55,644 bases of DNA from a virus. Its lineage: Duplodnaviria; Heunggongvirae; Uroviricota; Caudoviricetes. Position numbers and translations under genes: made by a program. Below are positions 775 to 55,644 of the stretch, one piece after another. A model generated the notes under the pieces. The model was not told the origin of the DNA. It worked only from the letters and a program-made list of their open reading frames with translations, and ran no database searches. Within the stretch, counting starts at the first letter, position 1; each line of letters starts with the position of its first letter. The stretch lies in the IMG/VR virus record IMGVR_UViG_2537561830_000005; one strand, given 5' to 3'.

Positions 775-1140
775 ATGATTGATGTCTTAGGACCGGAGAA
801 ACGCAGACGGCGTACTACACAGGAAAAGATCGCTATTGTTCAGCAGAGTTTTGAACCGGGAATGACGGTCTCCCTTGTTGCCCGGCAACACGGTGTGGCA
901 GCCAGCCAGTTATTTCTCTGGCGCAAGCAATACCAGGAGGGAAGTCTTACTGCTGTGGCCGCAGGAGAGCAGATCGTTCCTGCCTCTGAACTTGCTGCTG
1001 CCATGAAGCAGATTAAAGAACTCCAGCGCCTGCTCGGCAAAAAAACGATGGAAAATGAACTCCTTAAAGAAGCCGTTGAATACGGGCGTGCAAAAAAGTG
1101 GATAGCGCACGCGCCCTTATTGCCCGGGGATGGGGAGTAA
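775..1140 (+). CDS. insC: IS2 OrfA (InsC) transposition regulator
   Basis: ATG at 775; 121-aa product recognised as IS2 InsC ([13 protein letters not shown]...); the track ORF starts earlier at a GTG. Confidence 0.9.
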
Positions 1141-2003: not shown

Positions 2004-2573
2004 GGGCAAATCCAAAATGGTTTGGTTGATATAAATCCCGACTGATACGCAAAACGCAACAGCGAACAGAGCAGGGCGATATAGTTATCAACTGTGCGCA
2101 CGGTTCTTCCTTTTTTGTTGGATCTTGGATTATCCAGGTAAAGCGTTTCTCCATGCAGCAGTTCATTCCGGTAGTTTAAGATATCGCTATAACGAATATG
2201 TGATATCGGGGTACTTTCACAAATTATTATTCTGAGTGTTTTTAATTGTGATTTCGTTTTCTTCATTGTGTTTGTTGTTAACTCTGTCTCTTTAATTTTT
2301 GTCCAGATATCACAAAGCTCTCCGAACGTTTTTATGACTCTCGTTGTCACCATTTTTGCCCCAGTGCTGGACTGGGGAAAACGTCTTAAATACTCAAATT
2401 CACCGGAGTTTATTTCATGAACTATCAGCGCTCTTAAATTTCCGGCCTTTTTAATATTACTGTTTGTAATCTCCCAGCCTTTTAATGTTTCCCGACATCG
2501 TTTTCCTCGAAACATGAACCAGATGCGAATGTATCTACCTCTAATCTCGACACCTGTTGGTAATTTAGACATA

Positions 2574-12194: not shown

Positions 12195-14198
12195 ATGATT
12201 ATGAGTGAAAATGATACAACCCCAAAGAAGTCTACAAGCCAGATTAACAAAGCGGTATTCTTTACATCTGCTTTGCTAATTTTCCTTCTTGTCGCCTTTG
12301 CCGCCGTATTCCCGGATGTCGCCGACAAAAATTTTAAACTACTTCAGCAACAAATCTTCACGAATGCCAGCTGGTTCTACATACTTGCTGTGGCCCTGAT
12401 TTTACTGAGCGTCACGTTCCTTGGACTCTCACGTTACGGTGATATAAAGCTGGGCCCAGACCATGCGCAGCCTGATTTCAGCTACCACTCCTGGTTCGCG
12501 ATGCTTTTTTCGGCAGGGATGGGGATCGGCCTGATGTTCTTTGGCGTTGCCGAACCTGTGATGCATTATCTTTCGCCACCTGTCGGCACTCCAGAGACCG
12601 TTGCGGCAGCGAAGGAAGCCATGCGCCTGACGTTCTTCCACTGGGGTCTGCACGCATGGGCAATTTATGCCATCGTGGCGCTGATTCTGGCCTTTTTCAG
12701 TTACCGTCACGGTCTGCCTTTAACGCTGCGTTCTGCGCTCTATCCCATTATCGGCGATCGCATTTACGGGCCTATAGGCCACGCGGTTGATATCTTCGCC
12801 GTGATAGGCACTGTCTTTGGCGTTGCAACATCGCTGGGTTACGGTGTATTGCAGGTGAATGCCGGTTTGAACCATCTTTTCGGCGTGCCCATCAATGAAA
12901 CGGTACAGGTCATTTTGATCGTGGTCATCACGGGGTTAGCGACGATTTCGGTGGTGTCCGGCCTGGACAAGGGAATACGCATCCTGTCTGAGCTTAATCT
13001 GGGCCTGGCGGTGTTGCTCCTGGCGCTGGTCTTGTGCCTGGGTCCCACTGTGCTTCTGCTGAAGTCATTTGTGGAAAATACGGGTGGTTATCTGTCGGAA
13101 CTGGTGAGTAAAACGTTCAACCTTTACGCGTATGAACCCAAGTCGAGCAACTGGCTGGGGGGCTGGACATTATTATACTGGGGATGGTGGCTTTCATGGT
13201 CGCCGTTTGTAGGTATGTTCATTGCACGCGTTTCCCGCGGCAGGACAATTCGTGAGTTCGTGACTGGCGTGTTGTTTGTTCCCGCCGGCTTTACGCTCAT
13301 GTGGATGACGGTGTTTGGAAACAGCGCCATCTATCTCATCATGAACCAGGGCGCCACTGACCTCGCCAATACCGTTCAGCAGGATGTTGCGCTTGCCCTG
13401 TTTAATTTCCTGGAGCATTTCCCGTTCTCTTCCGTGCTGTCATTCATTGCAATGGCGATGGTCATCGTCTTCTTTGTAACGTCTGCTGATTCGGGGGCAA
13501 TGGTTGTGGATACTCTGGCATCAGGTGGGGTGGCAAACACGCCCGTCTGGCAGCGAATTTTCTGGGCATCGCTCATGGGCGTTGTTGCTATTGCCCTGCT
13601 GATCGCAGGGGGGCTGAGTGCGTTGCAAACCGTAACGATAGCGAGTGCATTGCCCTTCTCAGTTATCTTATTAATATCCATATACGGACTGTTAAAAGCC
13701 CTGCGTCGGGATTTGACCAAGCGTGAAAGCCTTAGCATGGCGACTATTGCTCCTACGGCTGCACGTAACCCAATTCCCTGGCAGAGAAGGTTACGCAATA
13801 TCGCGTATTTGCCGAAGCGCTCTCTTGTGAAACGTTTTATGGACGACATTATCCAACCCGCCATGACGCTGGTTCAGGAGGAACTTAACAAGCAGGGAAC
13901 GATAAGCCACATCAGTGACGCCGCCGAGGATCGTATTCGCCTTGAAGTCGATTTGGGCAACGAGCTGAATTATATATATGAAGTGAGGCTTCGCGGGTAT
14001 AACTCACCGACCTTCGCGCTCGCTGCGCTGGATAATGATGAGCAGCAGAGTGAACAACATCGATATTATCGCGCTGAAGTCTATCTCAAAGAGGGCGGCC
14101 AAAATTATGATGTAATGGGCTGGAATCAGGAACAGCTGATTAATGACATACTGGACCAGTACGAAAAACACCTGCACTTCCTGCATCTGGTTCGTTAA
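12195..14198 (+). CDS. BCCT-family transporter, BetT-like with long C-terminal domain
   Basis: 667-aa ORF with the BCCT tryptophan-rich signature (WTLLYWGWWLSWSPFVG) and strong resemblance to E. coli BetT. Confidence 0.9.
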   Translation: MIMSENDTTPKKSTSQINKAVFFTSALLIFLLVAFAAVFPDVADKNFKLLQQQIFTNASWFYILAVALILLSVTFLGLSRYGDIKLGPDHAQPDFSYHSWFAMLFSAGMGIGLMFFGVAEPVMHYLSPPVGTPETVAAAKEAMRLTFFHWGLHAWAIYAIVALILAFFSYRHGLPLTLRSALYPIIGDRIYGPIGHAVDIFAVIGTVFGVATSLGYGVLQVNAGLNHLFGVPINETVQVILIVVITGLATISVVSGLDKGIRILSELNLGLAVLLLALVLCLGPTVLLLKSFVENTGGYLSELVSKTFNLYAYEPKSSNWLGGWTLLYWGWWLSWSPFVGMFIARVSRGRTIREFVTGVLFVPAGFTLMWMTVFGNSAIYLIMNQGATDLANTVQQDVALALFNFLEHFPFSSVLSFIAMAMVIVFFVTSADSGAMVVDTLASGGVANTPVWQRIFWASLMGVVAIALLIAGGLSALQTVTIASALPFSVILLISIYGLLKALRRDLTKRESLSMATIAPTAARNPIPWQRRLRNIAYLPKRSLVKRFMDDIIQPAMTLVQEELNKQGTISHISDAAEDRIRLEVDLGNELNYIYEVRLRGYNSPTFALAALDNDEQQSEQHRYYRAEVYLKEGGQNYDVMGWNQEQLINDILDQYEKHLHFLHLVR

Positions 14199-14206
14199 CA
14201 GCAACA

Positions 14207-14233
14207 TGCCGCCACAGAGGCGGCATTTATTTA
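14207..14233 (+). terminator. rho-independent terminator after the BCCT gene
   Basis: Hairpin TGCCGCC-ACAGA-GGCGGCA followed by a T-rich run. Confidence 0.55.
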
Positions 14234-14246
14234 TCCCGGCTGCAAT

Positions 14247-15539
14247 ATGAGGGAATGCAGAATGATTTCACGCTGGAAATGGATGCTGAAGCAGACATTT
14301 AAAAAACTATGGTTCAGGGCAACGTTATTCGCAATTGTCGCAATAATAACGGCCCTTTTATCAATTCTTTTTAAATCAATGATACCTGAGTCGGTTTCCG
14401 TGAAGGTTGGTGCGGAAGCAGTCGATAACATTCTGAACATACTGGCATCGAGTATGCTGGCAGTGACCACATTTTCGCTGAGCATCATGGTCACAGCCTA
14501 CGGTTCAGCCACTACTAATGTGACTCCCAGAGCTACTCGTTTAGTTGTTGAAGACGTCACCACACAAAATGTACTGGCCACCTTCATCGGTTCTTTTCTC
14601 TTCAGTCTGGTAGGGATTATTGCCCTCAATATGGGAGCTTATGGAGAAAGGGGGAGAGTCATTTTATTCATTGTAACACTGGTTGTCATTGCCTTAATCC
14701 TCATCACATTGCTTCGCTGGATACAGCATTTGACCTCTCTGGGGAGGGTTGGTGAGACAACGGCAAAAGTAGAACAGGCGGCCATCGAAACATTTATTGC
14801 GAGAGCAAGAAATCCCTGTCTCGGCGGATATCCATGGCTTGAGAACAATGAACAGCCGAAAGGAACGGTTGCAGTTTATCCGAAAAAGATTGGCTATATT
14901 GAATATGTTGATATGGTGAAACTCAGCAAGCTGCTGACCAATGATCCCCGTCATGTATACCTCGTGGCGCAGCCGGGCAGTTTCATACATCCGTCCACGC
15001 CAGTTTTGTACCTGAGTCAGGGCCAGGAGTCATCAATCAGCACCGATTTACTTGAGACGATTATTGTCTCGGATGTACGTTCATTTGCTCAGGACCCCCG
15101 ATTTTGTCTTAGCGTCATGGCCGAAATAGCCTGCCGAGCCCTTTCCCCCGCAGTGAACGATCCTGGAACCGCCATTGATGTCATTGGCAGAGGTGTACGT
15201 ATACTTTCCGCTTACGCGCAGAATAAATCTGATGAAATAGAAGTGAAATATCCTTCTGTACATGTTGCACCACTTCAGAATAACGATCTACTTGAAGACT
15301 TTTTCTCACCTGTTGCGCGCGATGGTGCCAGTATGAGGGAAATTCAGATAAGGGTACTTAAAGGACTGTCGATGCTGAGTAAGGGTTGGCCTGGAATTTT
15401 TGCTGAAGCCGCACAAACCCTAGCATTTGAAACATTAGAGCATGCTACTCGTGCTGACCATATAGATTCTGACAGATATCTAATAAAATCAATTTATTAT
15501 AATTTATTTAGTGGCGAAGATTCTAATAAAAAACCATAG
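14247..15539 (+). CDS. membrane protein with N-terminal TM helices and C-terminal soluble domain (possibly DUF2254)
   Basis: 430-aa ORF; hydrophobic segments in the first ~160 aa; alternative ATG at 14262; family name is tentative. Confidence 0.7.
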   Translation: MRECRMISRWKWMLKQTFKKLWFRATLFAIVAIITALLSILFKSMIPESVSVKVGAEAVDNILNILASSMLAVTTFSLSIMVTAYGSATTNVTPRATRLVVEDVTTQNVLATFIGSFLFSLVGIIALNMGAYGERGRVILFIVTLVVIALILITLLRWIQHLTSLGRVGETTAKVEQAAIETFIARARNPCLGGYPWLENNEQPKGTVAVYPKKIGYIEYVDMVKLSKLLTNDPRHVYLVAQPGSFIHPSTPVLYLSQGQESSISTDLLETIIVSDVRSFAQDPRFCLSVMAEIACRALSPAVNDPGTAIDVIGRGVRILSAYAQNKSDEIEVKYPSVHVAPLQNNDLLEDFFSPVARDGASMREIQIRVLKGLSMLSKGWPGIFAEAAQTLAFETLEHATRADHIDSDRYLIKSIYYNLFSGEDSNKKP

Positions 15540-15601
15540 TTGCGGAGCAAGCGATACGGTTGTTGGCAAGTCAAGGGCAAAGCATTCGCGTGAGAGTGGG
15601 C

Positions 15602-15625
15602 GTCTGCTTTGTGCCAGAAGCGGAC
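15602..15625. repeat. 24-bp imperfect palindrome GTCTGCTTTGTGCCAGAAGCGGAC (copy 2)
   Basis: Lies between the convergent ends of the membrane-protein and LysR genes; a looser hairpin GTCCGCT-N10-AGCGGAC sits at 18668-18691. Confidence 0.4.
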
Positions 15626-15669
15626 ATACGTAACTTATGATACGCATCGCCAATCATCCGTTTCAAACA

Positions 15670-16551
15670 TCAACGCGGAAACGTTTTAAGAATGTAATCC
15701 CGAACATAGGCGGTTCGGCTGTTATTAGCCGTCCTTTTGTTCCAGACCAGATAAAGATGATTAGTCGGAGCGAGGTCTGCAGGTGTCACTGAAATCAGGC
15801 GACCACTTTTCAGGTCATTGTCACAGTGATAATCCGGCAGCACTGTCCACCCGTGGCCGTCACAGACCAAGTCGCGGATAATACGTAAATCCGGAATGGT
15901 GAATGTAGCCTGCATCTCAGGGGCTCTCTGAAACATGGAGGCCCAGAGCGCTCTAATCAGTGGCAACTCTTCGTCATAAGCAATCAGCGGTAATGAGGCA
16001 AGCGTTTCAGCACCAGGTTCTGATCCGATGATCTCTGACATGGCGGGAGCATGAACAAGGAGCATGCGTTCAGTCAGTAGATGTGCATAGCCGTACAGAC
16101 GGTCATCAGGCATAGATGCGGTAACAGCGAGATCGGCGCTCCCGTCATGCAAAAGGGAATAAATACGTTGCTTATTGCCGGTATGAAAGCGTAGGCGATA
16201 CCCCTCCTTCATTAGTGGAGCCATTACTGTCCCAAGCCGGGAATGAATAAAATCTGGCGGTCCTGCCAGATTAATTGTTCCCCCACGTACAGAGCCTGAC
16301 CGGAAAGAGGACAGCTTTTCTTCCAGACCATCAATGAAGGGTGAAACTGAGCGGGCAAGCTCATCCGCAGCTTCGGTTGCCGTCACGCCTCTGGCCTGCC
16401 TGATAAACAGACGCTTACCAACCAGAGTCTCAAGAGACTGGATATGCTGTGACGCCGCGGGCTGAGTGATGCCCAGTAGTTCTGCCGCCTTTGAAAAGGA
16501 GCCAGAGCGATAGGCCTCAAGAAACGTTCGCAGATGGCTCAGATGGCTCAT
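15670..16551 (-). CDS. LysR-family transcriptional regulator
   Basis: 293-aa ORF with an N-terminal HTH (FSKAAELLGITQPAASQHIQSLE); its ATG overlaps the upstream gene's stop (ATGA). Confidence 0.9.
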   Translation of the reverse strand: MSHLSHLRTFLEAYRSGSFSKAAELLGITQPAASQHIQSLETLVGKRLFIRQARGVTATEAADELARSVSPFIDGLEEKLSSFRSGSVRGGTINLAGPPDFIHSRLGTVMAPLMKEGYRLRFHTGNKQRIYSLLHDGSADLAVTASMPDDRLYGYAHLLTERMLLVHAPAMSEIIGSEPGAETLASLPLIAYDEELPLIRALWASMFQRAPEMQATFTIPDLRIIRDLVCDGHGWTVLPDYHCDNDLKSGRLISVTPADLAPTNHLYLVWNKRTANNSRTAYVRDYILKTFPR

Positions 16552-17240
16552 AGTGAAGCGCCTCGCTGATGAAGTTTATCGTTACAGGGAGCCTCATGCA
16601 GAGCAAGGGCCAGTTCACTCACGTAATCATCCCGTATTCCCAACGCACCCAGAGTGGCCTGCAGTTTCCATACATAATCTGCATTCGTGCCAATGTCTCC
16701 ACGGGCAGATGCGATGCTCAACGCTACGGTCGCTGTAAGATTGTCCTGTTCATAATGCGGATGCAGTCTGTCTGATACGAAAGCCAGCGCCTGAATTTCC
16801 TTACCGTTTCCTAGCGAAACGTCTGCCCAGACCGGACGGTAAAGACCGGTTATCATCTCGCGCGTCCAGACAATTTCCAGCTCATTAATAAGAGTCGATT
16901 CCGGCAGTCTGAACGCAATACCTTCGGTAATTCCACCTTCGTCGAGCGATAACATCCTGCCGGGGACATCAGGAGTCGCTCGTCCGGATATCAAACGAAT
17001 GCAGAAACTGCGCTGCCATCCTTTCAGACGGGCCCGTTGCATTTCTTCAATCGCCAGCACGGGATTCCACATCAATGACCCGTAGGCAAATATCCAGACA
17101 GGAGCACCCGTCGGGCGCTCCTCCAGAGTAGAGTTCATTGATGCGCGTATTTTTTCAGCGTCCCAGAGCATATTCGCCGGGAGCAGCGCTTCATGCACCC
17201 TGACAAATGTGCCATTAAGCATATTTTCACGGGTAAGCAT
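16548..17240 (-). CDS. ChaC-like gamma-glutamylcyclotransferase
   Basis: 230-aa ORF with the YGSLMWNP motif and overall resemblance to E. coli ChaC. Confidence 0.8.
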   Translation of the reverse strand: MLTRENMLNGTFVRVHEALLPANMLWDAEKIRASMNSTLEERPTGAPVWIFAYGSLMWNPVLAIEEMQRARLKGWQRSFCIRLISGRATPDVPGRMLSLDEGGITEGIAFRLPESTLINELEIVWTREMITGLYRPVWADVSLGNGKEIQALAFVSDRLHPHYEQDNLTATVALSIASARGDIGTNADYVWKLQATLGALGIRDDYVSELALALHEAPCNDKLHQRGASL

Positions 17241-17251
17241 ATAACCTCCCT

Positions 17252-18451
17252 TTACTGGCCTACGATTTTAACCTGTTGAAATTTACGACTGTGGCTGCGA
17301 CGGATTTGTGCAAGCAGCAACAGCAGGCCGAGCAGAGAAACAATCGCACCGCTGATACCGGTATACACGATACCGGCGTGGCTTATAGTAATGCTGCCCA
17401 GTACTGATCCCAGCGCTATACCTGAGTTGAAGCCCGCAATATTCAGGCCGGCAGCAACACCATGCGCATGAGGAGCATGTTGCTCAGCGACACCAATCAG
17501 ACGGGCCTGCAGTGCCGGCACTGCGGCAAATGTCACCATACCCAGTAGCGCAACCAGAATGCCCATGCTCACCGGTGAGGATGACAGCAGCCACATACCA
17601 AGCACGACAACAACAATGCCGCTAATGATGAGTATATTGGCACGATTAACCCCCATGCTGTCGGTAAGTTTCCCACCAAGAATATTACCTACCGCAGCTG
17701 TAATACCGTAAACCAGCATAAACAGACTCACCGTTGCTCCGGTAACCCCTGTCACCTGCGTCAGAATAGGTGCGATAAAGGTGTAATCCGTAAACGAGCC
17801 TGCATACGCCAGCACCGTAACCAGCGCGCCGGCCAGCAACTTACGGTTAAACAGCATGCCGATATTCTGCATTGCTGAGTCACTATGTTCACCGGGCACG
17901 CTGCGTACGGGATCTTTCATACCGAACAACAGTCCAAGGAATCCGAACGCGCCAAAAGCGGCAATAGCGCCGAGAACTGGACGCCATGAGACCACCCCCC
18001 CCAACCATGTACTCAGCGGTACGCCGATTGCCATCGCCAGAGTAAAGCCACCAAATACCACAGCCACCGCTCTGCCTGCTTTACCCGGTCCAGCAAGACG
18101 AGCTGCGGTACTGGATGCCGCAGCCAGAAACAGGCCGTGTCCCAGACCAGCAATGAACCGCGCTAACAGGAGCTGAGGTAATGTGGCTGCAAACGCGGCC
18201 GCCAGACTACCGGCAGTAAACACAACGGCAGTTGTAAGCATTACATTTTTCCGGCTCCAGCTTGCTGTCAGCGCAGACAGTACGGGTGCCGCGAACGTTG
18301 CCCCCAGTGCATAGGTTGTAACCGCTGCCCCGGTCTGCTCCACACCCACACACAACCCCTGAGCCATAACGTCTGTCAGCCCAATGGGGACAAATTCCGC
18401 GAGTCCGAGCGCAAAGGCACTGATAGTAAACACATAAATAACAAATGGCAT
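17252..18451 (-). CDS. MFS transporter, YdhP/AraJ-like
   Basis: 399-aa ORF with ~12 predicted TM segments; first gene of the MFS / ChaC-like / LysR operon. Confidence 0.9.
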   Translation of the reverse strand: MPFVIYVFTISAFALGLAEFVPIGLTDVMAQGLCVGVEQTGAAVTTYALGATFAAPVLSALTASWSRKNVMLTTAVVFTAGSLAAAFAATLPQLLLARFIAGLGHGLFLAAASSTAARLAGPGKAGRAVAVVFGGFTLAMAIGVPLSTWLGGVVSWRPVLGAIAAFGAFGFLGLLFGMKDPVRSVPGEHSDSAMQNIGMLFNRKLLAGALVTVLAYAGSFTDYTFIAPILTQVTGVTGATVSLFMLVYGITAAVGNILGGKLTDSMGVNRANILIISGIVVVVLGMWLLSSSPVSMGILVALLGMVTFAAVPALQARLIGVAEQHAPHAHGVAAGLNIAGFNSGIALGSVLGSITISHAGIVYTGISGAIVSLLGLLLLLAQIRRSHSRKFQQVKIVGQ

Positions 18452-42840: not shown

Positions 42841-43137
42841 ATGAAAACAGAAAATAAACCATCGATAAAAACTGTAAGATTTGGCGATGGTTATGAGCAA
42901 CGAAGTCCAAATGGACTTAATCATTCTCTGCGCGTTTTCACCTGTGATTTCAAAGTTGAGGCGAATGAACGTGATTCATTTGAAAAATTTTTAGCCCGGC
43001 ATGAAGGCTATAAATCTTTTTTTTGGCGCCCGCCGGGTATTAACAGAAAAATCAGAGTGGTGTGTCGAACGTGGTCAGCGACAGAACATATCACCTATAC
43101 CGATTTTTCGTGTCAGTTTGACGAAGTGGTGATCTGA
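42841..43137 (+). CDS. minor tail protein M (lambda gpM-like)
   Basis: Product MKTENKPSIKTVRFGDGYEQ... resembles lambda M; an upstream GTG at 42799 is an alternative start. Confidence 0.75.
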   Translation: MKTENKPSIKTVRFGDGYEQRSPNGLNHSLRVFTCDFKVEANERDSFEKFLARHEGYKSFFWRPPGINRKIRVVCRTWSATEHITYTDFSCQFDEVVI

Positions 43138-43835
43138 TGCAGGACATACAACAGGAAACGCTGAATGAATGCATTCGTGCGGAGCAGTCGGCCAGCGTGG
43201 TGCTCTGGGAAATCGACCTGACCGAGGTAGGCGGGGATCGCTACTTTTTCTGTAATGAGCAGAACGAAAAAGGTGAGTCTGTCACCTGGCAGAGTCGGCA
43301 GTATCAGGCCTATCCCATTCAGGGGAGTGGATTTGAGATGAACGGCAAGGGCAGTGCTGCCCGTCCGACACTGACGGTCTCTAACCTGCACGGCATGATC
43401 ACCGGGATGGCGGAAGATCTGCAGAGTCTGGTCGGCGGAACGGTGGTCCGGCGTAAGGTTTACGCCCGCTTTCTGGATGCGGTGAACTTCGTCAACGGAA
43501 ACAGCGAAGCCGATCCGGAGCAGGAGGTGATCAGCCGCTGGCGCATCGAGCAGTGCAGCGAACTGAGCGCGGTCAGTGCCTCTTTTGTACTGTCCACGCC
43601 GACTGAAACGGATGGCGCTGTTTTTCCGGGACGTATCATGCTGGCCAACACCTGCACCTGGACCTATCGCGGCGATGAGTGCGGTTATAGCGGTCCGGCG
43701 GTCGCGGATGAATATGACCAGCCGACGTCCGATATCACGAAGGATAAATGCAGCAAATGCCTGAGTGGCTGTAAGTTTCGCAATAATGTCGGCAACTTTG
43801 GCAGCTTCCTTTCCATTAACAAACTTTCGCAGTAA
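43137..43835 (+). CDS. minor tail protein L (lambda gpL-like)
   Basis: 232-aa product MQDIQQETLNECIRAEQSASVVLWEIDL..., closely matching recalled lambda L. Confidence 0.9.
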   Translation: MQDIQQETLNECIRAEQSASVVLWEIDLTEVGGDRYFFCNEQNEKGESVTWQSRQYQAYPIQGSGFEMNGKGSAARPTLTVSNLHGMITGMAEDLQSLVGGTVVRRKVYARFLDAVNFVNGNSEADPEQEVISRWRIEQCSELSAVSASFVLSTPTETDGAVFPGRIMLANTCTWTYRGDECGYSGPAVADEYDQPTSDITKDKCSKCLSGCKFRNNVGNFGSFLSINKLSQ

Positions 43836-43840
43836 ATCCC

Positions 43841-44585
43841 ATGACAGAGACAGAATCAGCGATTCTGGCGCACGCCCGGCGATGTGCGCCAGCGGAGTCG
43901 TGCGGCTTCGTGGTGAGAACGCCGGAGGAGGAAAGATATTTTCCCTGCGTGAATATCTCCGGTGAGCCGGAGGCGTATTTCCGGATGTCGCCGGAGGACT
44001 GGCTGCAGTGCAGAAATGCAGGGAGAGATTGTGGCGCTGGTCCACAGCCACCCCGGTGGTCTGCCCTGGCTGAGTGAGGCCGACCGGCGGCTGCAGGTGC
44101 AGAGTGATTTGCCGTGGTGGCTGGTCTGCCGGGGGACGATTCATAAGTTCCGCTGTGTGCCGCATCTCACCGGGCGGCGCTTTGAGCACGGTGTGACGGA
44201 CTGTTACACACTGTTCCGGGATGCTTATCATCTGGCGGGGATTGAGATGCCGGACTTTTATCGTGAGGATGACTGGTGGCGTAACGGCCAGAATCTCTAT
44301 CTGGATAATCTGGAGGCGACGGGGCTGTATCAGGTGCCGTTGTCAGCGGCACAGCCGGGCGATGTGCTGCTGTGCTGTTTTGGTTCATCAGTGCCGAATC
44401 ACGCCGCAATTTACTGCGGCGACGGCGAGCTGCTGCACCATATTCCTGAACAACTGAGCAAACGAGAGAGGTACACCGACAAATGGCAGCGACGCACACA
44501 CTCCCTCTGGCGTCACCGGGCATGGCGCGCATCTGCCTTTACGGGGATTTACAACGATTTGGTCGCCGCATCGACCTTCGTGTGA
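43841..44585 (+). pseudogene. tail tip assembly protein K (lambda gpK-like), frameshifted at ~44009
   Basis: Two overlapping track ORFs (43841..44077, 43962..44585) in different frames; the frames meet at CTGCAG-T-GCAGAAATG (44003-44018). Confidence 0.7.
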
Positions 44586-45154
44586 AAACGGGGGCTGAAG
44601 CCATCCGGGCACTGGCCACACAGCTCCCGGCGTTTCGTCAGAAACTGAGCGACGGCTGGTATCAGGTACGGATTGCCGGGCGGGACGTCAGCACGTCCGG
44701 GTTAACGGCGCAGTTACATGAGACTCTGCCTGATGGCGCTGTGATTCATATTGTTCCCAGAGTCGCCGGGGCCAAGTCAGGTGGCGTATTCCAGATTGTC
44801 CTGGGGGCTGCCGCCATTGCCGGATCATTCTTTACCGCCGGAGCCACCCTTGCAGCATGGGGGGCAGCCATTGGGACCGGTGGTATGACCGGCATCCTGT
44901 TTTCTCTCGGTGCCAGTATGGTGCTCGGTGGTGTGGCGCAGATGCTGGCACCGAAAGCCAGAACTCCCCGTACACAGACAACGGATAACGGTAAGCAGAA
45001 CACCTATTTCTCCTCACTGGATAACATGGTTGCCCAGGGCAATGTTCTGCCTGTTCTGTACGGGGAAATGCGCGTGGGGTCTCGCGTGGTTTCTCAGGAG
45101 ATCAGCACGGCAGACGAAGGGGACGGTGGTCAGGTTGTGGTGATTGGTCGCTGA
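44483..45154 (+). CDS. tail assembly protein I (lambda gpI-like)
   Basis: 223-aa product MAATHTLPLASPGMARICLYGDLQRFG..., closely matching recalled lambda I; overlaps the K 3' end. Confidence 0.85.
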   Translation: MAATHTLPLASPGMARICLYGDLQRFGRRIDLRVKTGAEAIRALATQLPAFRQKLSDGWYQVRIAGRDVSTSGLTAQLHETLPDGAVIHIVPRVAGAKSGGVFQIVLGAAAIAGSFFTAGATLAAWGAAIGTGGMTGILFSLGASMVLGGVAQMLAPKARTPRTQTTDNGKQNTYFSSLDNMVAQGNVLPVLYGEMRVGSRVVSQEISTADEGDGGQVVVIGR

Positions 45155-45214
45155 TGCAAAATGTTTTATGTGAAACCGCCTGCGGGCGGTTTTATCGTTT
45201 ATGGAGCGTGAGGA

Positions 45215-48200
45215 ATGGGTAAAGGCAGCAGTAAGGGGCATACCCCGCGCGAAGCGAAGGACAACCTGAAGTCCACGCAGCTGCTGAGTGTGATCGATGC
45301 CATCAGCGAAGGGCCGGTTGAAGGTCCGGTGGATGGATTAAAAAGCGTGCTGCTGAACAGTACGCCGGTGCTGGACACTGAGGGGAATACCAACATCTCC
45401 GGTGTCACGGTGGTGTTCCGTGCCGGTGAGCAGGAGCAGACACCGCCGGAGGGGTTTGAATCCTCCGGCTCCGAGACGGTGCTGGGTACGGAAGTGAAAT
45501 ATGACACGCCGATCACCCGCACCATTACGTCTGCAAACATCGACCGTCTGCGCTTTACCTTCGGTGTGCAGGCACTGGTGGAAACCACCTCAAAGGGGGA
45601 CCGGAATCCGTCGGAAGTCCGCCTGCTGGTTCAGATACAGCGTAACGGTGGCTGGGTGACGGAAAAAGACATCACCATTAAGGGCAAAACCACCTCGCAG
45701 TATCTGGCATCGGTGGTGGTGGGTAACCTGCCGCCGCGCCCGTTCAATATCCGGATGCGCAGGATGACGCCGGACAGCACCACAGACCAGCTGCAGAACA
45801 AAACGCTCTGGTCGTCATACACCGAAATCATCGATGTGAAACAGTGCTACCCGAACACGGCACTGGTCGGCGTACAGGTGGATTCGGAGCAGTTCGGCAG
45901 CCAGCAGGTGAGCCGTAATTATCATCTGCGCGGGCGTATTCTGCAGGTGCCGTCGAACTATAACCCGCAGACTCGGCAATACAGCGGTATCTGGGACGGA
46001 ACGTTTAAGCCAGCATACAGCAATAACATGGCCTGGTGTCTGTGGGATATGCTGACCCATCCACGCTACGGCATGGGGAAACGTCTTGGTGCGGCGGATG
46101 TGGACAAATGGGCGCTGTATGTCATCGGCCAGTACTGCGACCAGTCAGTGCCGGACGGCTTTGGCGGCACGGAGCCGCGCATCACCTGTAATGCGTACCT
46201 GACCACACAGCGCAAGGCGTGGGATGTGCTCAGTGATTTCTGCTCGGCGATGCGCTGTATGCCGGTATGGAACGGGCAGACGCTGACGTTCGTGCAGGAC
46301 CGACCGTCGGATAAGGTGTGGACCTATAACCGCAGTAATGTGGTGATGCCGGATGATGGCGCGCCGTTCCGCTACAGCTTCAGCGCCCTGAAGGACCGCC
46401 ATAATGCCGTTGAGGTGAACTGGATTGACCCGAATAACGGCTGGGAGACGGCGACAGAGCTTGTGGAGGACACGCAGGCCATTGCCCGTTACGGTCGTAA
46501 CGTCACGAAGATGGATGCTTTTGGCTGTACCAGCCGGGGGCAGGCACACCGCGCCGGGCTGTGGCTGATTAAAACGGAACTGCTGGAGACGCAGACCGTG
46601 GACTTCAGCGTGGGTGCGGAAGGGCTTCGCCATGTACCGGGGGATGTCATTGAAATCTGCGATGATGACTATGCCGGTATCAGCACCGGTGGTCGCGTGC
46701 TGGCGGTGAACAGCCAGACCCGGACGCTGACGCTCGACCGTGAAATCACGCTGCCATCCTCCGGTACCACGCTGATAAGCCTGGTTGACGGAAGTGGTAA
46801 TCCGGTCAGCGTGGAGGTTCAGTCCGTCACCGACGGACTTAAGGTGAAAGTGAACCGGGTTCCTGACGGCGTTGCAGAATACAGTGTGTGGGGGCTGAAG
46901 CTGCCGACGCTGCGCCAGCGCCTGTTCCGCTGTGTGAGTATCCGTGAGAACGATGACGGCACGTATGCCATCACTGCCGTGCAGCATGTACCGGAAAAAG
47001 AAGCCATCGTGGATAACGGGGCGCACTTTGACGGCGACCAGAGCGGCACGGTGAATGGTGTCACGCCGCCAGCGGTGCAGCACCTGACCGCCGAAGTCAC
47101 CGCAGACAGCGGGGAATATCAGGTGCTGGCGCGCTGGGACACGCCGAAGGTGGTGAAGGGCGTGAGCTTCCTGCTTCGCCTGACCGTGGCAGCGGATGAC
47201 GGCAGTGAGCGGCTGGTCAGCACGGCCCGGACGACGGAAACCACATACCGCTTCACGCAGCTGGCGCCAGGGAACTACAGGCTGACAGTCCGGGCGGTAA
47301 ATGCGTGGGGGCAGCAGGGCGATCCGGCATCGGTATCGTTCCGGATTGCCGCACCTGCAGTGCCGTCGCGGCTTGAGCTGACGCCGGGCTATTTTCAGAT
47401 AACCGCCACGCCGCATCTTGCCGTTTATGACCCGACGGTACAGTTTGAGTTCTGGTTCTCGGAAAAGCGGATTGCGGATATCAGGCAGGTTGAAACCACA
47501 GCCCGCTATCTTGGTACGGCGCTGTACTGGATAGCCGCCAGTATCAATATCAGGCCGGGCCATAATTATTATTTTTACGTTCGCAGTGTGAACACCGTTG
47601 GCAAATCGGCATTCGTGGAGGCTGTTGGTCAGCCGAGTGATGACGCATCCGGCTATCTGGATTTTTTCAAAGGCGAGATAGGGAAAACCCATCTGGCTCA
47701 GGAGCTGTGGACGCAGATTGATAACGGTCAGCTTGCGCCTGACCTGGCTGAAATCAGGACGTCCATTACGGATGTCAGCAATGAAATCACACAGACCGTC
47801 AATAAGAAACTGGAAGACCAGAGTGCAGCGATCCAGCAGATACAGAAGGTTCAGGTTGATACAAATAATAATCTGAACAGCATGTGGGCTGTGAAGCTGC
47901 AGCAGATGCAGGACGGACGCCTTTATATTGCGGGTATCGGTGCCGGTATTGAGAACACCCCCGACGGCATGCAGAGTCAGGTGCTGCTGGCGGCACACAG
48001 GATTGCGATGATTAATCCTGCAAATGGCAACACAAAACCGATGTTTGTTGGTCAGGGTGATCAGATATTCATGAATGAAGTGTTCCTGAAATATCTGACG
48101 GCTCCCACCATTACCAGCGGCGGTAATCCTCCTGCATTTTCCATGACACCGGACGGAAAGCTGACCGCTAAAAATGCAGATATCAGTGGCAGTGTGAATG

Positions 48201-48694
48201 CGAACGCCGGGACGCTCAACAACGTTACGATAAATGAGAACTGTCAGATTAAAGGGAAACTGTCAGCCAACCAGATTGAAGGCGATATTGTCAAAACAGT
48301 GGGTAAGGCTTTCCCGCGGGACTCCCGGGCACCGGAGCGGTGGCCATCAGGGACCATTACCGTCAGGATTTATGACGATCAGCCGTTTGACCGGCAGATT
48401 GTTATTCCGGCGGTGGCATTCAGCGGTGCTAAACATGAGAGAGAGCATACTGATATTTACTCCTCATGCCGCCTGATAGTGAAGAAAAATGGTGCTGAAA
48501 TTTATAACCGTACCGCGCTGGATAATACGCTGATTTACAGTGGTGTTATTGATATGCCAGCTGGTCACGGCCACATGACGCTGGAGTTTTCGGTGTCAGC
48601 ATGGCTGGTAAATGACTGGTATCCCACAGCAAGTATCAGCGATTTGCTGGTTGTGGTGATGAAGAAAGCCACCGCAGGCATCAGTATCAGCTGA
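45215..48694 (+). CDS. host specificity / central tail fibre protein J
   Basis: 1159-aa ORF, lambda J-like throughout. Confidence 0.95.
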
Positions 48695-49425: not shown

Positions 49426-51597
49426 ATGGCAGTACGGATTTCAGGTGTACTGAAAGATGGCGCAGGTAAGCCGATACAAAACTGCACCATTCAGCTAAAG
49501 GCCAGGCGCAACAGCACCACGGTGGTGGTGAACACAGTGGCCTCAGAAAACCCGGATGAAGCCGGGCGTTACACAATGGACGTCGAGTATGGTCAGTACA
49601 GCGTCAGTCTGTTGGTGGAGGGATTCCCGCCGTCACACGCCGGGATTATCACCGTATATGAGGACTCAAAGCCGGGCACACTGAATGATTTCCTCGGTGC
49701 AATGACGGAGGATGATGTCCGGCCAGAGGCACTGCGCCGTTTTGAACTGATGGTGGAAGAGGTGGCGCGTAACGCGTCCGCAGTGGCACAGAACACGGCA
49801 GCCGCGAAGAAGTCAGCCGGCGATGCCGGCACATCTGCCCGTGAGGCGGCAACCCATGCGACTGATGCTGCAGGCTCAGCACGCGCAGCCAGCACGTCAG
49901 CCGGACAGGCCGCTTCGTCGGCTCAGTCAGCGTCTTCCAGCGCAGGAACGGCATCAGCAAAGGCCACTGAAGCATCAAAAAGTGCTGCCGCTGCAGAGTC
50001 CTCAAAAAGCGCGGCGGCCACCAGTGCCGCTGCGGCAAAAACGTCAGAAACGAATGCGGCAGCGTCACAACAATCAGCAGCCACTTCAGCATCCACCGCG
50101 ACCACGAAAGCGTCAGAAGCTGCCACCTCAGCCCGGGATGCGGCGGCCTCAAAAGAGGCAGCGAAATCATCAGAAACGAACGCATCATCAAGCGCCAGTA
50201 GTGCCGCTTCCTCGGCAACGGCGGCAGGCAATTCCGCGAAGGCGGCAAAGACGTCTGAGACAAACGCCAGGTCTTCTGAAACGGCAGCGGGACAGAGTGC
50301 CTCAGCTGCGGCAGGCTCAAAAACAGCGGCTGCGTCGTCTGCCAGTGCCGCGTCAACAAGTGCCGGGCAGGCCTCAGCCAGTGCCACCGCCGCCGGAAAA
50401 TCGGCAGAAAGCGCCGCATCGTCTGCTTCAACAGCCACAACGAAGGCTGGCGAAGCCACTGAACAGGCCAGCGCAGCAGCAAGGTCTGCTTCCGCAGCGA
50501 AGACATCCGAGACGAACGCGAAAGCGTCGGAAACCAGCGCAGAATCCTCAAAAACGGCTGCCGCATCGTCCGCCAGTTCGGCGGCGTCATCGGCATCATC
50601 GGCGTCTGCTTCAAAAGATGAGGCGACCAGACAAGCGTCCGCAGCGAAGGGCAGCGCCACGACGGCATCCACGAAGGCGACAGAGGCAGCTGGCAGTGCG
50701 ACGGCGGCAGCACAGAGCAAAAGTACGGCGGAATCCGCGGCAACGCGCGCCGAGACAGCGGCAAAACGGGCAGAGGATATTGCATCCGCCGTGGCGCTTG
50801 AGGATGCGAGCACGACGAAAAAGGGGATAGTACAGCTCAGCAGTGCGACCAATAGCACTTCCGAGTCACTGGCGGCAACGCCAAAAGCCGTTAAGGCCGC
50901 GTATGACCTGGCTAACGGGAAATACACCGCACAGGATGCAACGACAGCACAGAAAGGGATAATCCAGCTAAGCAGCGCGACCAACAGCACGTCTGAAACG
51001 CTGGCGGCAACGCCAAAGGCAGTAAAATCAGCCTATGACAATGCAGAGAAACGTCTGCAGAAAGACCAGAACGGCGCTGATATACCCGATAAGGGACGCT
51101 TCCTGAACAACATTAACGCGGTCAGTAAAACAGACTTTGCTGATAAGCGTGGTATGCGTTATGTGCGGGTTAACGCTCCTGCAGGTGCAACATCTGGAAA
51201 ATATTACCCTGTTGTTGTTATGCGTTCTGCTGGCTCAGTAAGCGAACTGGCATCAAGGGTCATTATCACCACGGCAACGCGAACCGCAGGCGATCCGATG
51301 AATAACTGCGAGTTTAACGGATTTGTTATGCCTGGTGGCTGGACTGACAGGGGGCGTTATGCTTATGGAATGTTCTGGCAATATCAAAACAATGAACGAG
51401 CCATCCACTCAATAATGATGAGTAATAAGGGCGATGATTTGCGCTCTGTGTTCTATGTTGATGGCGCTGCTTTCCTGGCGTTTATCGAAGATGGCCTGTC
51501 AATATCCGCACCTGGTGCTGATCTCGTTGTTAATGATACGACCTATAAGTTTGGGGCAACAAATCCAGCGACTGAATGTATCGCGGCGGACATTTGA
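49426..51597 (+). CDS. stfR: side tail fibre protein Stf, copy 1 (723-aa reading frame)
   Basis: N-terminus MAVRISGVLKDGAGKPIQNCTIQLKA..., long Ala/Ser-rich repeats, then a globular C-terminal part. Confidence 0.75.
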   Translation: MAVRISGVLKDGAGKPIQNCTIQLKARRNSTTVVVNTVASENPDEAGRYTMDVEYGQYSVSLLVEGFPPSHAGIITVYEDSKPGTLNDFLGAMTEDDVRPEALRRFELMVEEVARNASAVAQNTAAAKKSAGDAGTSAREAATHATDAAGSARAASTSAGQAASSAQSASSSAGTASAKATEASKSAAAAESSKSAAATSAAAAKTSETNAAASQQSAATSASTATTKASEAATSARDAAASKEAAKSSETNASSSASSAASSATAAGNSAKAAKTSETNARSSETAAGQSASAAAGSKTAAASSASAASTSAGQASASATAAGKSAESAASSASTATTKAGEATEQASAAARSASAAKTSETNAKASETSAESSKTAAASSASSAASSASSASASKDEATRQASAAKGSATTASTKATEAAGSATAAAQSKSTAESAATRAETAAKRAEDIASAVALEDASTTKKGIVQLSSATNSTSESLAATPKAVKAAYDLANGKYTAQDATTAQKGIIQLSSATNSTSETLAATPKAVKSAYDNAEKRLQKDQNGADIPDKGRFLNNINAVSKTDFADKRGMRYVRVNAPAGATSGKYYPVVVMRSAGSVSELASRVIITTATRTAGDPMNNCEFNGFVMPGGWTDRGRYAYGMFWQYQNNERAIHSIMMSNKGDDLRSVFYVDGAAFLAFIEDGLSISAPGADLVVNDTTYKFGATNPATECIAADI

Positions 51598-52480
51598 TAA
51601 GAGTGGGCGGGTTTTTATGAGTCTCATTCGTTAATCGTTAACGATAACTTGTCGTGCAAACTTTTTGCCACAGACGAAATTGTAGCGCGTGGTGGTAATC
51701 AGATTCGAATGATAGGTGGGGAGTATGGGGCATTATGGCGTAATGATGGCGCTAAAACTTACCTGCTGCTTACCAATCAAGGTGATGTTTATGGTGGATG
51801 GAATACATTAAGACCGTTTGCTATTGATAACGCAACCGGCGAACTGGTTATTGGAACCAAGCTGTCTGCAAGTCTGAACGGTAACGCATTGACAGCAACA
51901 AAGCTGCAAACGCCAAGACGGTTTCTGGGTTGAGTTTGATGGTTCAAAGATATTAACCGCATGCTGCGCCAGAACAACGGATACATATGCCGATGCGGAG
52001 GAAGTTGATGATGAAGGCGCATTACAGAAATGGTGGTCTGTTCTACCGTTCTTCAAGAGACGGTTATGGTTTTGAGGAAGACTGGGCAGAAGTTTATACC
52101 TCGAAAAATCTTCCACCAGAAAGCTACCCAGTCGGCGCACCATATGCCCTGATGCAGGGGCAGACGACAAATCTGCTTACCCGAAACTTGCAGCCGCTTA
52201 TCCGTCAGGCGTGATCCCTGATATGCGTGGCTGGACGATTAAGGGCAAGCCCGCCAGTGGTCGTGCCGTATTGTCTCAGGAACAGGACGGCATTAAATCG
52301 CACACCCACAGCGCCAGCGTATCCAGTACGGATTTGGGTACGAAAACCACATCATCGTTTGATTACGGCACTAAATCCACGAATAACACTGGTGCGCATA
52401 CTCATAGTTTAAGTGGCAGCACGAATGCAGCTGGTAATCACAGCCATAGAGATGGCCGTCGATTTAACCCCAGTGTTTAA
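51598..52480 (+). pseudogene. tail-fibre C-terminal remnants in shifted frames
   Basis: Track ORFs 51649..51933, 51987..52214 and 52211..52480 sit in three frames and carry fibre-like segments (YALMQGQT..., [35 protein letters not shown]...). Confidence 0.5.
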
Positions 52481-52503
52481 AGATATAATCATAGCCATCA
52501 CTG

Positions 52504-52641
52504 TGGCACAGCAGGAGTGGCAGGGGAAGCGTCACTCTGGAGTTTAAGATTTTCCAGAATGGCAATCAGGGGGCAGGCAATATCACCGACTGTACGGTGA
52601 TTGCGACCAAAAAAGCCGCTTCCGGCATCAGTATTCGTTGA
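52504..52641 (+). other. fragment of an alternative J C-terminal cassette (copy a)
   Basis: Encodes ...GRGSVTLEFKIFQNGNQGAGNITDCTVIATKKAASGISIR-stop, homologous to but distinct from the J end ...[14 protein letters not shown]...[10 protein letters not shown]. Confidence 0.5.
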
Positions 52642-52711
52642 AATATTTATAACCCCAATAAAGGGCGTCAGGAATGACGCCTTTTTTATTGCAGAAAAGC
52701 GAGAGGTAATT

Positions 52712-53305
52712 ATGCGTAAAGTTTGTGCAGCAATTTTGTCCGCAGCCATTTGTCTGGCCGTATCCGGTGCGCCTGCATGGGCGTCTGAACATCAGTCCAC
52801 GCTGAGCGCGGGGTATCTTCATGCCTCGACGAACGTCCCCGGCAGCGATGATCTGAACGGGATTAACGTGAAATACCGTTATGAGTTTACGGACACACTG
52901 GGGCTGGTGACGTCATTCAGCTATGCAGGAGACAAGAATCGCCAGCTGACCCGTTACAGCCGCTGGCATGAAGATTCCGCTCGTAACCGCTGGTTCAGCG
53001 TAATGGCGGGGCCGTCTGTGCGCGTGAATGAATGGTTCAGCGCGTATGCGATGGCGGGTGTAGCTTACAGCCGTGTGTCGACTTTCTCCGGGGATTATCT
53101 TCGCGTAACTGACAACAAGGGGAAAAAGCACGATGTGCTGACCGGAAGTGATGACGGTCGCCACAGCAACACGTCTCTGGCGTGGGGGGCTGGCGTGCAG
53201 TTTAACCCGACCGAATCCGTGGCCATTGATATTGCTTATGAAGGCTCCGGCAGTGGTGACTGGCGCACTGACGGTTTCATCGTGGGTGTCGGTTATAAAT
53301 TCTGA
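52712..53305 (+). CDS. Lom-like outer membrane protein, copy 2
   Basis: 197 aa from ATG 52712; differs from copy 1 by a 2-codon deletion and a few substitutions. Confidence 0.85.
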   Translation: MRKVCAAILSAAICLAVSGAPAWASEHQSTLSAGYLHASTNVPGSDDLNGINVKYRYEFTDTLGLVTSFSYAGDKNRQLTRYSRWHEDSARNRWFSVMAGPSVRVNEWFSAYAMAGVAYSRVSTFSGDYLRVTDNKGKKHDVLTGSDDGRHSNTSLAWGAGVQFNPTESVAIDIAYEGSGSGDWRTDGFIVGVGYKF

Positions 53306-53371
53306 TTAGCCAGGTAACACAGTGTTATGACAGCCCGCCGGTTCAGGCGGGCTTTTTTTGTGGGGTTGAAT

Positions 53372-53757
53372 ATGGCAGTGAAGATTTCAGGTGTACTGAA
53401 AGACGGCACAGGAAAACCGGTACAGAACTGCACAATCCAGCTGAAAGCAAAACGTAGTCGTCGGCTCAGTCAGCATCTTCCAGCGCAGGAACGGCATCAA
53501 CAAAGGCCAGTGAAGCATCGAAAAGTGCTGCTGCTGCAGAGTCCTCAAAAAGCGCGGCAGCTACCAGTGCCGGTGCGGCGAAAACGTCAGAAACGAATGC
53601 GGCAGCGTCACAACAATCAGCAGCCACTTCTGCATCCGCCGCGACCACGAAGGCGTCAGAAGCAGCCACCTCAGCCCGGGATGCGGCGGCCTCAAAAGAG
53701 GCAGCGAAATCATCAGAAACGAACGCATCATCAAGCGCCAGTAGTGCCGCTTCCTCG
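53372..53757 (+). pseudogene. stf 5' fragment with a 403-bp internal deletion
   Basis: Matches stf copy 3 up to ~53456, then resumes at sequence corresponding to ~55255 of copy 3 (frameshifting); breaks off at 53757. Confidence 0.6.
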
Positions 53758-54032
53758 CGTATGACGATCCGGGGAGCGGAAATAACCCAGGAGGCACGCG
53801 ATACACGGGTTATGGTTTTGAAGTTCGCAAAAACGGCGTATTAATCGCATCCAGAGAAACTAAAGGGGCCATTCCCGGTAGTTACAGTGCAGTTATTGAT
53901 ATGCCGAGTGGCAGGGGAAGCGTCACTCTGGAGTTTAAGATTTTCCAGAAAGGCAATCAGGGGGCAGGCAATATCACCGACTGTACGGTGATTGTGACCA
54001 AAAAAGCCGCTTCCGGCATCAGTATTCGTTGA
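53758..54032 (+). other. fragment of an alternative J C-terminal cassette (copy b)
   Basis: Encodes ...RYTGYGFEVRKNGVLIASRETKGAIPGSYSAVIDMPSGRGSVTLEFKIFQKGNQGAGNITDCTVIVTKKAASGISIR-stop. Confidence 0.55.
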
Positions 54033-54102
54033 AATATTTATAACCCCAATAAAGGGCGTCAGGAATGACGCCTTTTTTATTGCAGAAAAGCGAGAGGTAA
54101 TT

Positions 54103-54702
54103 ATGCGTAAAGTTTGTGCAGCAATTTTGTCCGCAGCCATTTGTCTGGCCGTATCCGGTGCGCCTGCATGGGCGTCTGAACATCAGTCCACGCTGAGCGC
54201 GGGGTATCTTCATGCCTCGACGAACGTCCCCGGCAGCGATGATCTGAACGGGATTAACGTGAAATACCGTTATGAGTTTACGGACACACTGGGGCTGGTG
54301 ACGTCATTCAGCTATGCAGGAGACAAGAATCGCCAGCTGACCCGTTACAGCGATACCCGCTGGCATGAAGATTCCGTTCGTAACCGCTGGTTCAGCGTAA
54401 TGGCGGGGCCGTCTGTGCGCGTGAATGAATGGTTCAGCGCGTATGCGATGGCGGGTGTAGCTTACAGCCGTGTGTCGACTTTCTCCGGGGATTATCTTCG
54501 CGTAACTGACAACAAGGGGAAAAAGCACGATGTGCTGACCGGAAGTGATGACGGTCGCCACAGCAACACGTCTCTGGCGTGGGGGGCTGGCGTGCAGTTT
54601 AACCCGACCGAATCCGTGGCCATTGATATTGCTTATGAAGGCTCCGGCAGTGGTGACTGGCGCACTGACGGTTTCATCGTGGGTGTCGGTTATAAATTCT
54701 GA
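54103..54702 (+). CDS. Lom-like outer membrane protein, copy 3
   Basis: 199-aa ORF nearly identical to copy 2. Confidence 0.85.
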   Translation: MRKVCAAILSAAICLAVSGAPAWASEHQSTLSAGYLHASTNVPGSDDLNGINVKYRYEFTDTLGLVTSFSYAGDKNRQLTRYSDTRWHEDSVRNRWFSVMAGPSVRVNEWFSAYAMAGVAYSRVSTFSGDYLRVTDNKGKKHDVLTGSDDGRHSNTSLAWGAGVQFNPTESVAIDIAYEGSGSGDWRTDGFIVGVGYKF

Positions 54703-54766
54703 TTAGCCAGGTAACACAGTGTTATGACAGCCCGCCGGTTCAGGCGGGCTTTTTTGTGGGGTGAAT

Positions 54767-55644
54767 ATGGCAGTAAAGATTTCAGGTGTACTGAAAGACG
54801 GCACAGGAAAACCGGTACAGAACTGCACAATCCAGCTGAAAGCAAAACGTAACAGCACCACGGTGGTGGTGAACACGCTGGCCTCAGAAAATCCGGATGA
54901 AGCCGGGCGTTACAGCATGGACGTTGAGTACGGGCAGTACAGCGTTATTCTGTTGGTGGAGGGATTCCCGCCGTCACATGCCGGGACCATCACCGTGTAT
55001 GAAGATTCCCGACCCGGTACGCTGAATGATTTTCTCGGTGCCATGACGGAGGATGATGCCCGTCCTGAGGCACTGCGCCGTTTTGAACTGATGGTGGAAG
55101 AGGTGGCGCGTAACGCGTCCGCGGTGGCACAGAACACGGCAGCCGCGAAGAAGTCAGCCAGCGATGCCAGCACATCAGCCCGTGAGGCGGCAACCCATGC
55201 GACTGATGCTGCAGGCTCAGCACGCGCAGCCAGCACGTCAGCCGGACAGGCCGCGTCGTCGGCTCAGTCAGCATCTTCCAGCGCAGGAACGGCATCAACA
55301 AAGGCCAGTGAAGCATCGAAAAGTGCTGCTGCTGCAGAGTCCTCAAAAAGCGCGGCAGCTACCAGTGCCGGTGCGGCGAAAACGTCAGAAACGAATGCGG
55401 CAGCGTCACAACAATCAGCAGCCACTTCTGCATCCGCCGCGACCACGAAGGCGTCAGAAGCAGCCACCTCAGCCCGGGATGCGGCGGCCTCAAAAGAGGC
55501 AGCGAAATCATCAGAAACGAACGCATCATCAAGCGCCAGTAGTGCCGCTTCCTCGGCAACGGCGGCAGGCAATTCCGCGAAGGCGGCAAAGACGTCTGAG
55601 ACAAACGCCAGGTCTTCTGAAACGGCAGCGGGACAGAGCGCCTC
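54767..55644 (+). CDS. side tail fibre protein Stf, copy 3 (5' part; continues past the window end)
   Basis: ATG at 54767; N-terminus MAVKISGVLKDGTGKPVQNCTIQLKAKRNSTTVVVN... parallels stf copy 1. Confidence 0.8.
   Translation, partial: MAVKISGVLKDGTGKPVQNCTIQLKAKRNSTTVVVNTLASENPDEAGRYSMDVEYGQYSVILLVEGFPPSHAGTITVYEDSRPGTLNDFLGAMTEDDARPEALRRFELMVEEVARNASAVAQNTAAAKKSASDASTSAREAATHATDAAGSARAASTSAGQAASSAQSASSSAGTASTKASEASKSAAAAESSKSAAATSAGAAKTSETNAAASQQSAATSASAATTKASEAATSARDAAASKEAAKSSETNASSSASSAASSATAAGNSAKAAKTSETNARSSETAAGQSA

Follow-up and report, generated by a model that had tools for sequence, protein, structure and literature searches.

The K gene of bacteriophage lambda corresponds to TAPK of Iyer et al. 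2006, and its JAB domain is predicted to process the ubiquitin-like domain of gpI (PMC1779556), making gpI a predicted substrate or partner of gpK. The protein is required for lambda tail assembly (PMC12617516); an earlier note on this DNA had relied on a need for K in assembly of the tail tip. By mass spectrometry gpK was undetected in lambda virions (PMC10721106). The lambda record J02459, in which the K region spans 14133–14875 (NC_001416 covers the same 743 bases), is without a G (GGAGGC-TATTTCC; about 1635 in locus L002, about 14267 in lambda and 43975 in the window, by which we mean the whole 55,644-base stretch of DNA analysed here). Because of this one-base gap, lambda K is annotated as 199 aa from 14276. 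The missing G is present in lambda imm434, in elppa6, in the window and in every tabulated non-lambda copy of K, and in other lambda records a 744-base, 247-aa ORF starts at about 14133 and takes in the catalytic Glu of the JAB domain.

The window comprises the last 55,644 bases of contig AQEP01000006.1 (GCA_000356545.1), from the draft assembly of E. coli P0302293.2, and holds a full-length Rac-type prophage adjoining ttcA. The Rac-type prophages at ttcA/intR in Z1323HEC0010 and LD22-1 are collinear with it over the whole window and carry the same cargo genes. Between 2377 and 43973 the window and Z1323HEC0010 show about 17 differences in 41.6 kb (~99.96% identity), and the two single-base indels other than that in K are changes in the length of T runs. 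The first 20 kb are 100.0% identical to EC0885, which carries only a truncated Rac remnant without K. The window assembly looks accurate in general. Unlike the window, both Z1323HEC0010 and LD22-1 have an intact 744-base K in their Rac-type prophages and are of Rac type throughout K-I-J. According to the annotation of the collinear relative, the prophage encodes RecE/RecT.

Several features of the window lie apart from the tail genes. Non-phage cargo occupies 12195–18451 (a BCCT transporter, DUF2254, a LysR regulator, a gamma-glutamylcyclotransferase and an MFS transporter, names from the relative's annotation); the LysR ORF measures 293 aa here versus 251 aa in Z1323HEC0010, with T4 here versus T3 at 15807. 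At 22359 the window has T10 versus T9 in Z1323HEC0010, where the relative annotates tolA-like remnants. The tail-fibre end (49426–55644) is irregular: the stf-like ORF is 723 aa versus 1176 aa in the relative, there are many small indels relative to it at 51475–51948, and the segments 52609–53447 and 53994–55644 both resemble one stretch of the relative at 91–93%, the window stopping at the contig end.

The features of the K region and the integrase lesion, in window coordinates, are as follows.

684–2017, plus strand: IS3-family element that splits the prophage integrase.
43137–43835, plus strand: gene L, 232 aa, Phage_tail_L; intact, Rac-type.
43841–44077, plus strand: N-terminal fragment of K, an ATG ORF of 78 aa with 55 native codons (Met1–Leu55), including the JAB catalytic Glu19 in ESCG, followed by 23 out-of-frame codons; matches Prok-JAB profile positions 4–58.
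44006, plus strand: extra base, a C between CTG (Leu55) and AGT (Ser56); T 44009 if lambda is the reference.
44007–44585, plus strand: C-terminal part of K in the +1 frame, Ser56–Val247 plus stop, with H68-x-H70-x7-S78-x2-D81 and the whole NlpC/P60 domain (Cys121 in DCY).
44016–44585, plus strand: possible restart ORF from ATG (Met59), 189 aa; GenBank-annotated product EMX16348.1.
44025–44098, no strand: left crossover interval, with Rac-type markers to 44024 and second-prophage markers from 44099.
44099–45682, plus strand: second-prophage-type patch of roughly 1.5 kb, spanning the last two-thirds of K, the whole of I and a few hundred bases at the 5' end of J.
44483–45154, plus strand: gene I, 223 aa, Lambda_tail_I; intact, donor-type, its start overlapping the end of K.
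45215–48694, plus strand: gene J, 1159 aa, intact but chimeric.

In the window K measures 745 bases, against 744 bases (247 codons) in intact relatives. The proposal of the earlier note, that a single-nucleotide frameshift breaks K at 43841–44585, is confirmed by both the ORF layout and the 744-base relatives; the alignment to K genes of related prophages that it had suggested, when run, gave relatives of 744 bases in one frame and a window gene of 745. The N-terminal frame, which it had read as ...EDWLQ with a stop at 44077, was confirmed among the ORFs. This frame reads ...SPEDWLQ near the break, continues for 22 out-of-frame residues and ends in a TGA stop at 44075–44077, and a continuous frame of ~247 codons is absent, the first frame stopping at 44077. 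In the +1 frame no stop occurs from 43962 until 44583–44585, and the sequence reads ...SAEMQGEIVALVHSHPGG....

The extra base falls after Leu55, inside the JAB domain, and parts Glu19 from the His-x-His/Ser/Asp motif, while the NlpC/P60 domain is left whole. The JAB profile is matched half by one fragment and half by the other. Removal of one base restores a protein of 247 aa in which Prok-JAB (PF14464) covers residues 4–104 (E=3.2e-14) and NLPC_P60 (PF00877) covers residues 111–224 over the full profile length (E=1.1e-12). The JAB motif residues of the repaired protein are E19, H68, H70, S78 and D81; in the deposited sequence this motif is split over two frames. By its L-K-I-J synteny and its JAB plus NlpC/P60 domains, the gene is a lambda-type K. 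Met59 (ATG at 44016) is the sole plausible restart within it, and expression of the ORF from this codon is doubtful, the nearest Shine-Dalgarno-like GGAGG lying ~19 bases upstream.

The earlier note had also described the tail cluster as otherwise intact, which holds for the tail genes; the prophage itself is damaged elsewhere. Apart from K, the head and tail genes all have open frames (tape measure, 1077 aa; M, L, I and J, the last of 1159 aa). By contrast, the IS3-family element divides the integrase on the minus strand into a catalytic domain (1–711) and an arm-binding N-terminus (1928–2572), and the prophage was thus already defective. Z1323HEC0010 has the same IS in the same integrase gene, 367 bases from the site used in the window, an offset that indicates independent insertions or a move. 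With its frameshift in a prophage whose integrase is split by an IS, K here has the marks of a pseudogene in a decaying prophage.

Three versions of the sequence can be distinguished at the site of the lesion: CTGCAGTGCAG, which has the extra C; CTGAGTGCAG, an in-frame version; and CTGCAGGCAG. The lambda-type in-frame allele at codon 56 reads CTG CAG GCA and the Rac-type allele CTG AGT GCA. This codon is polymorphic across 150 independent loci (L001–L130), with CAG (Gln) at 96, AGT (Ser) at 35, CGG (Arg) at 18 and AAG (Lys) at 1. CAG and AGT differ at all three codon positions, and in the MAFFT alignment these alleles form an offset pair of indels. The earlier note had assigned the extra base to T 44009, in CTGCAG-T-GCAG. 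Relative to lambda this describes the same event, but relative to the nearest alleles the extra base is C 44006: four Rac-type IMG/VR alleles (L031, L046, L028 and L044) equal the window over 43841..44098 save for that C, and because they differ from it in nothing else over this span we prefer C 44006 to T 44009. CTG-C-AGT is thus the parsimonious description of the insertion. The inserted C does not lie within a homopolymer. Quasi-palindrome and quasi-repeat correction were considered, as the site holds a perfect 5-base inverted repeat (CTGCA-G-TGCAG) and a tandem repeat (TGCAG-TGCAG); the arms are very short.

The K gene of the window is also a recombinant. As markers we took sites at which the Rac-type copies differ consistently from the lambda-like second-prophage type, represented by 600468 and by the second prophage of LD22-1. 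By these markers the window is of recipient (Rac) type at 43145–43996 and 44007–44024, of donor type from 44099 to at least 45532, and of recipient type again from 46040. Counting from the extra C, the left crossover is therefore 19–92 bases to the right. The patch that it opens is 99.8% identical to 600468 and to the second prophage of LD22-1, and its right end falls between 45532 and 45709. LD22-1 carries both prophage types, showing that such donors do co-reside with Rac-type prophages. The exact product of the chimeric J is on record only for the source contig, and the repaired recombinant K protein was not found in a collection of 15 billion proteins. Crossover and frameshift are both private to one assembly.

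Two other descriptions of the exchange were tried and rejected. With the LD22-1 prophages as parents, the markers at 43974–44024 seemed to alternate, which pointed to a mixture of reads or to patchy repair; by comparison with L031, L046, L028 and L044 the window is of pure Rac type through 44098 save for the C, and an A at 43974 and another at 44022 are peculiar to the Rac copies of Z1323HEC0010 and LD22-1. As a donor, elppa6 has the closest K overall (99.5%), but over I and the 5' part of J it has 25 mismatches, versus 2–3 for 600468 and the LD22-1 second prophage. Separately, a second, short cluster of differences, in J at 46433–46519, matches neither parent stand-in.

To ascertain how widespread the frameshift allele is, we used a 52-base query in which any 28-base seed was forced to span the junction. 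The allele was not found with this query in 5,426 complete E. coli genomes, nor was it found in GenBank phages. Exact pattern scans returned no copy of it in the GTDB representative genomes, in IMG/VR or in the metagenome collection. As a positive control, the same query without the C matched 827 places in 767 complete genomes, and with 827 in-frame copies of the same 51-mer the one-base difference is deterministic and chance is irrelevant to it. The in-frame 66-base version is present in 27 IMG/VR contigs. An intact 744-base K occurs in 4,285 of the 5,426 complete genomes, where it is annotated as a single 'C40 family peptidase', and in 247 of 249 phage records. A scan that allowed spacers of 2–4 bases at codon 56 returned only 3-base spacers in the 150 independent loci, and nothing suggests from these sequences that the site is an indel hotspot.

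The allele is thus on record only in the source contig, in one draft assembly, and independent sequences give no second instance of the lesion. Sibling isolates were sought through exact products carrying lineage-specific SNPs, and none were on record. A database indication of '3 samples with this contig' was not counted as independent confirmation, the exact J having one accession and one contig.

The earlier note had left the choice between an inactivating mutation and a sequencing error, and both are still live explanations. We put at about even chances the reading that the lineage of P0302293.2 acquired a real, inactivating one-base insertion in K, a reading that includes the case in which recombination itself produced the insertion. 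Under this reading a recent, lineage-private insertion of C at 44006, after codon 55, would cause translation from the K start to end after 78 residues. Restart at Met59 would give 189 residues with an intact NlpC/P60 domain but only that half of the JAB domain which is without the catalytic Glu19. Completion of tail tips would then require K supplied in trans by a co-resident lambda-like prophage. The insertion would have arisen in a prophage already immobilised by the IS in its integrase, probably with or soon after the gene conversion in which a second lambda-like prophage donated roughly 1.5 kb. The frameshift, the division of the domain, the uniqueness of the allele, the crossover and the IS in the integrase are seen directly in the sequence comparisons; the presence of the base in the isolate's DNA, the loss of K function and the link of the frameshift to recombination are inferred.

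High coverage in the studies of sibling isolates (PMC4462620), a non-homopolymer context and an otherwise clean window speak for a real mutation. In addition, the markers flanking the C (43984 G, 43996 G, 44009 T and 44024 A) are all of recipient type, so that a majority consensus should have dropped a C of minority donor type. Weighing against it, a single draft is the sole source of the allele, of the repaired recombinant K and of the chimeric J, and the C, which is the donor allele's base, lies within one 100-base read length of the edge of a shared segment, where an overlap-consensus assembler can misplace reads.

Decay is normal for this tail module, a further point in favour of a real mutation. 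Among other complete genomes a frameshift is flagged in the TMP gene of elppa6 and in J of 118UI and PCP06238, and in GF8 gene I is interrupted by an IS3-family element (the complete genomes with a lesioned module are L001, L019, L021 and L050). An IS3-family element also interrupts a lambda-type K in two drafts (L010, positions 1–146, BFJV01000040.1; L011, positions 1–39, SRR13998104), where the IS end ...GACCACTACA abuts GCAGGCAGAAATG about 2 bases from the position of the window's extra base. This insertion was not found in any complete genome, and its other junction is unseen. An indel hotspot or IS footprint at the site was considered on account of this element ~2 bases off in two drafts and rejected, as 150 of 150 loci yet keep the 3-base codon.

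A serious competitor, which we rate somewhat short of even, is that K is intact in the isolate and that the C was added when the Celera Assembler merged 100-base reads of two co-resident prophages at the edge of their shared segment. The gapped alleles are CTG-AGTGCAG and CTGCAG-GCAG, and a consensus that kept both insertion columns would read exactly CTGCAGTGCAG. The inserted base is the first base of the donor-type codon (CAG), as expected from the offset indel pair that MAFFT gave. The C lies 19–92 bases, less than one read length, from the boundary of the patch (roughly 1.5 kb, 99.8% identity to the second prophage type), the two prophage types co-occur in genomes such as LD22-1, and the allele is in a single assembly only. 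Studies of this isolate series used 100-base Illumina HiSeq reads at coverage > 200x and the Celera Assembler, and for the sibling isolates the authors note that repeats confounded assembly (PMC5469772, PMC4462620). The isolate is tied to those studies by its naming series and by the sibling P0302293_3 (AQAB00000000, SRR446963), which suggests that P0302293.2 was sequenced and assembled by the same method.

Set against these points, the method for isolate.2 is deduced from the naming series and is undocumented. Every substitution marker beside the C is of recipient type, which would put donor reads in the minority at this place, so that majority calling should have eliminated a column present in them alone. 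Moreover, the C lies outside the interval (44025 onward) in which a unique unitig would be joined to a repeat unitig, and the window has no other sign of consensus error. Separately, in short-read assemblies of unrelated E. coli many contigs (L012–L018) start at the counterpart of the ATG at 44016 or a few bases ahead of it; co-resident prophages may often have common sequence to the right of this point and different sequence to its left, or an IS may lie there. A real mutation and an assembly artefact are inseparable without the reads, and the finding is ordinary either way.

As a special case of the real mutation, the C may have been copied in vivo from the donor CAG during gene conversion, with frameshift and crossover forming one event. 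Separate repair of two one-base heteroduplex loops, or error-prone repair synthesis near the exchange point, could have produced it. Crossover and insertion are both private and less than 100 bases apart, the added C is the base that the donor allele has, and RecE/RecT is encoded by the prophage. However, this route needs a one-base donor island between recipient markers (43996 G on one side; 44009 T and 44024 A on the other), and long-patch mismatch repair normally yields no one-base island. In addition, by our estimate from ~33 variable sites, ~3% of random K insertions would also look as if both alleles had been kept. We consider this route unlikely. If true, it would mean that recombination between prophages, usually seen as repair or reshuffling, can itself make frameshifts at offset-pairing CAG/AGT codons.

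It is very improbable that K still functions, either through low-level +1 slippage at GGG-AGA (44021–44026; AGA is a rare Arg codon) or as a split protein. The slippage product would be full-length with five residues substituted (QCRNA for SAEMQ), which the codon context permits on paper, and, as gpK was undetected in lambda virions (PMC10721106), small amounts might suffice. However, the +1 arrangement occurs in 0 of 150 other K loci and in 0 of 5,426 genomes. A stimulatory element at a suitable distance is also absent, the GGAGG at 43992–43996 being ~24 bases upstream of the GGG codon. GGG-AGA is a weak candidate for a slippery codon, and the GAG before the stop at 44075 cannot re-pair in the +1 frame. 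Programmed +1 frameshifting was rejected, since a 4-base spacer is conserved in 0 of 150 loci and 0 of 5,426 genomes and the arrangement is thus not a programmed feature.

If the insertion is real, this Rac-type prophage would be able neither to build its own tail tips nor to excise normally, and a helper prophage would be needed for K. EMX16348.1, annotated as a 189-aa 'NlpC/P60 family protein', is a K fragment, and its entry should be flagged as a frameshifted pseudogene or rechecked. More generally, single-base lesions that lie less than one read length from the boundaries of paralogous prophages in short-read drafts should not be taken as biology until the reads are inspected. Beyond this genome the significance is small.

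Compared with K of bacteriophage lambda, the window gene has ~98.7% DNA identity, the same position between L and I/J, an identical domain architecture (JAB plus NlpC/P60) and the E...HxHx7SxxD motif in common. It differs in that its frame is interrupted after codon 55, in codon 56, which is AGT (Ser) as in Rac-type copies where lambda has CAG (Gln), and in its mosaic make-up, the 5' third being Rac-type and the 3' two-thirds lambda-like. The stf frameshift of laboratory lambda likewise breaks one tail gene of a lambda-type cluster that is complete in other respects (cited in PMC10721106). That lesion, however, is experimentally established and costs only dispensable side fibres, whereas the lesion in the window is unconfirmed and lies in the required K.

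Iyer et al. suggested that the NlpC/P60-only forms of K found in integrated prophages are degenerate forms typical of prophages (PMC1779556), and the Met59 restart product of the window would in effect be one of these. Unlike such forms, the JAB coding sequence of the window is all present and merely shifted by one base, so that its degeneration, if real, would be very recent. Frameshifts in the tail genes of prophages, mosaic exchange among lambdoid prophages that share a host and consensus errors where repeats end are each well known, and what the window holds is a lambda K in a Rac-type prophage with an ordinary one-base lesion, not a new kind of system.
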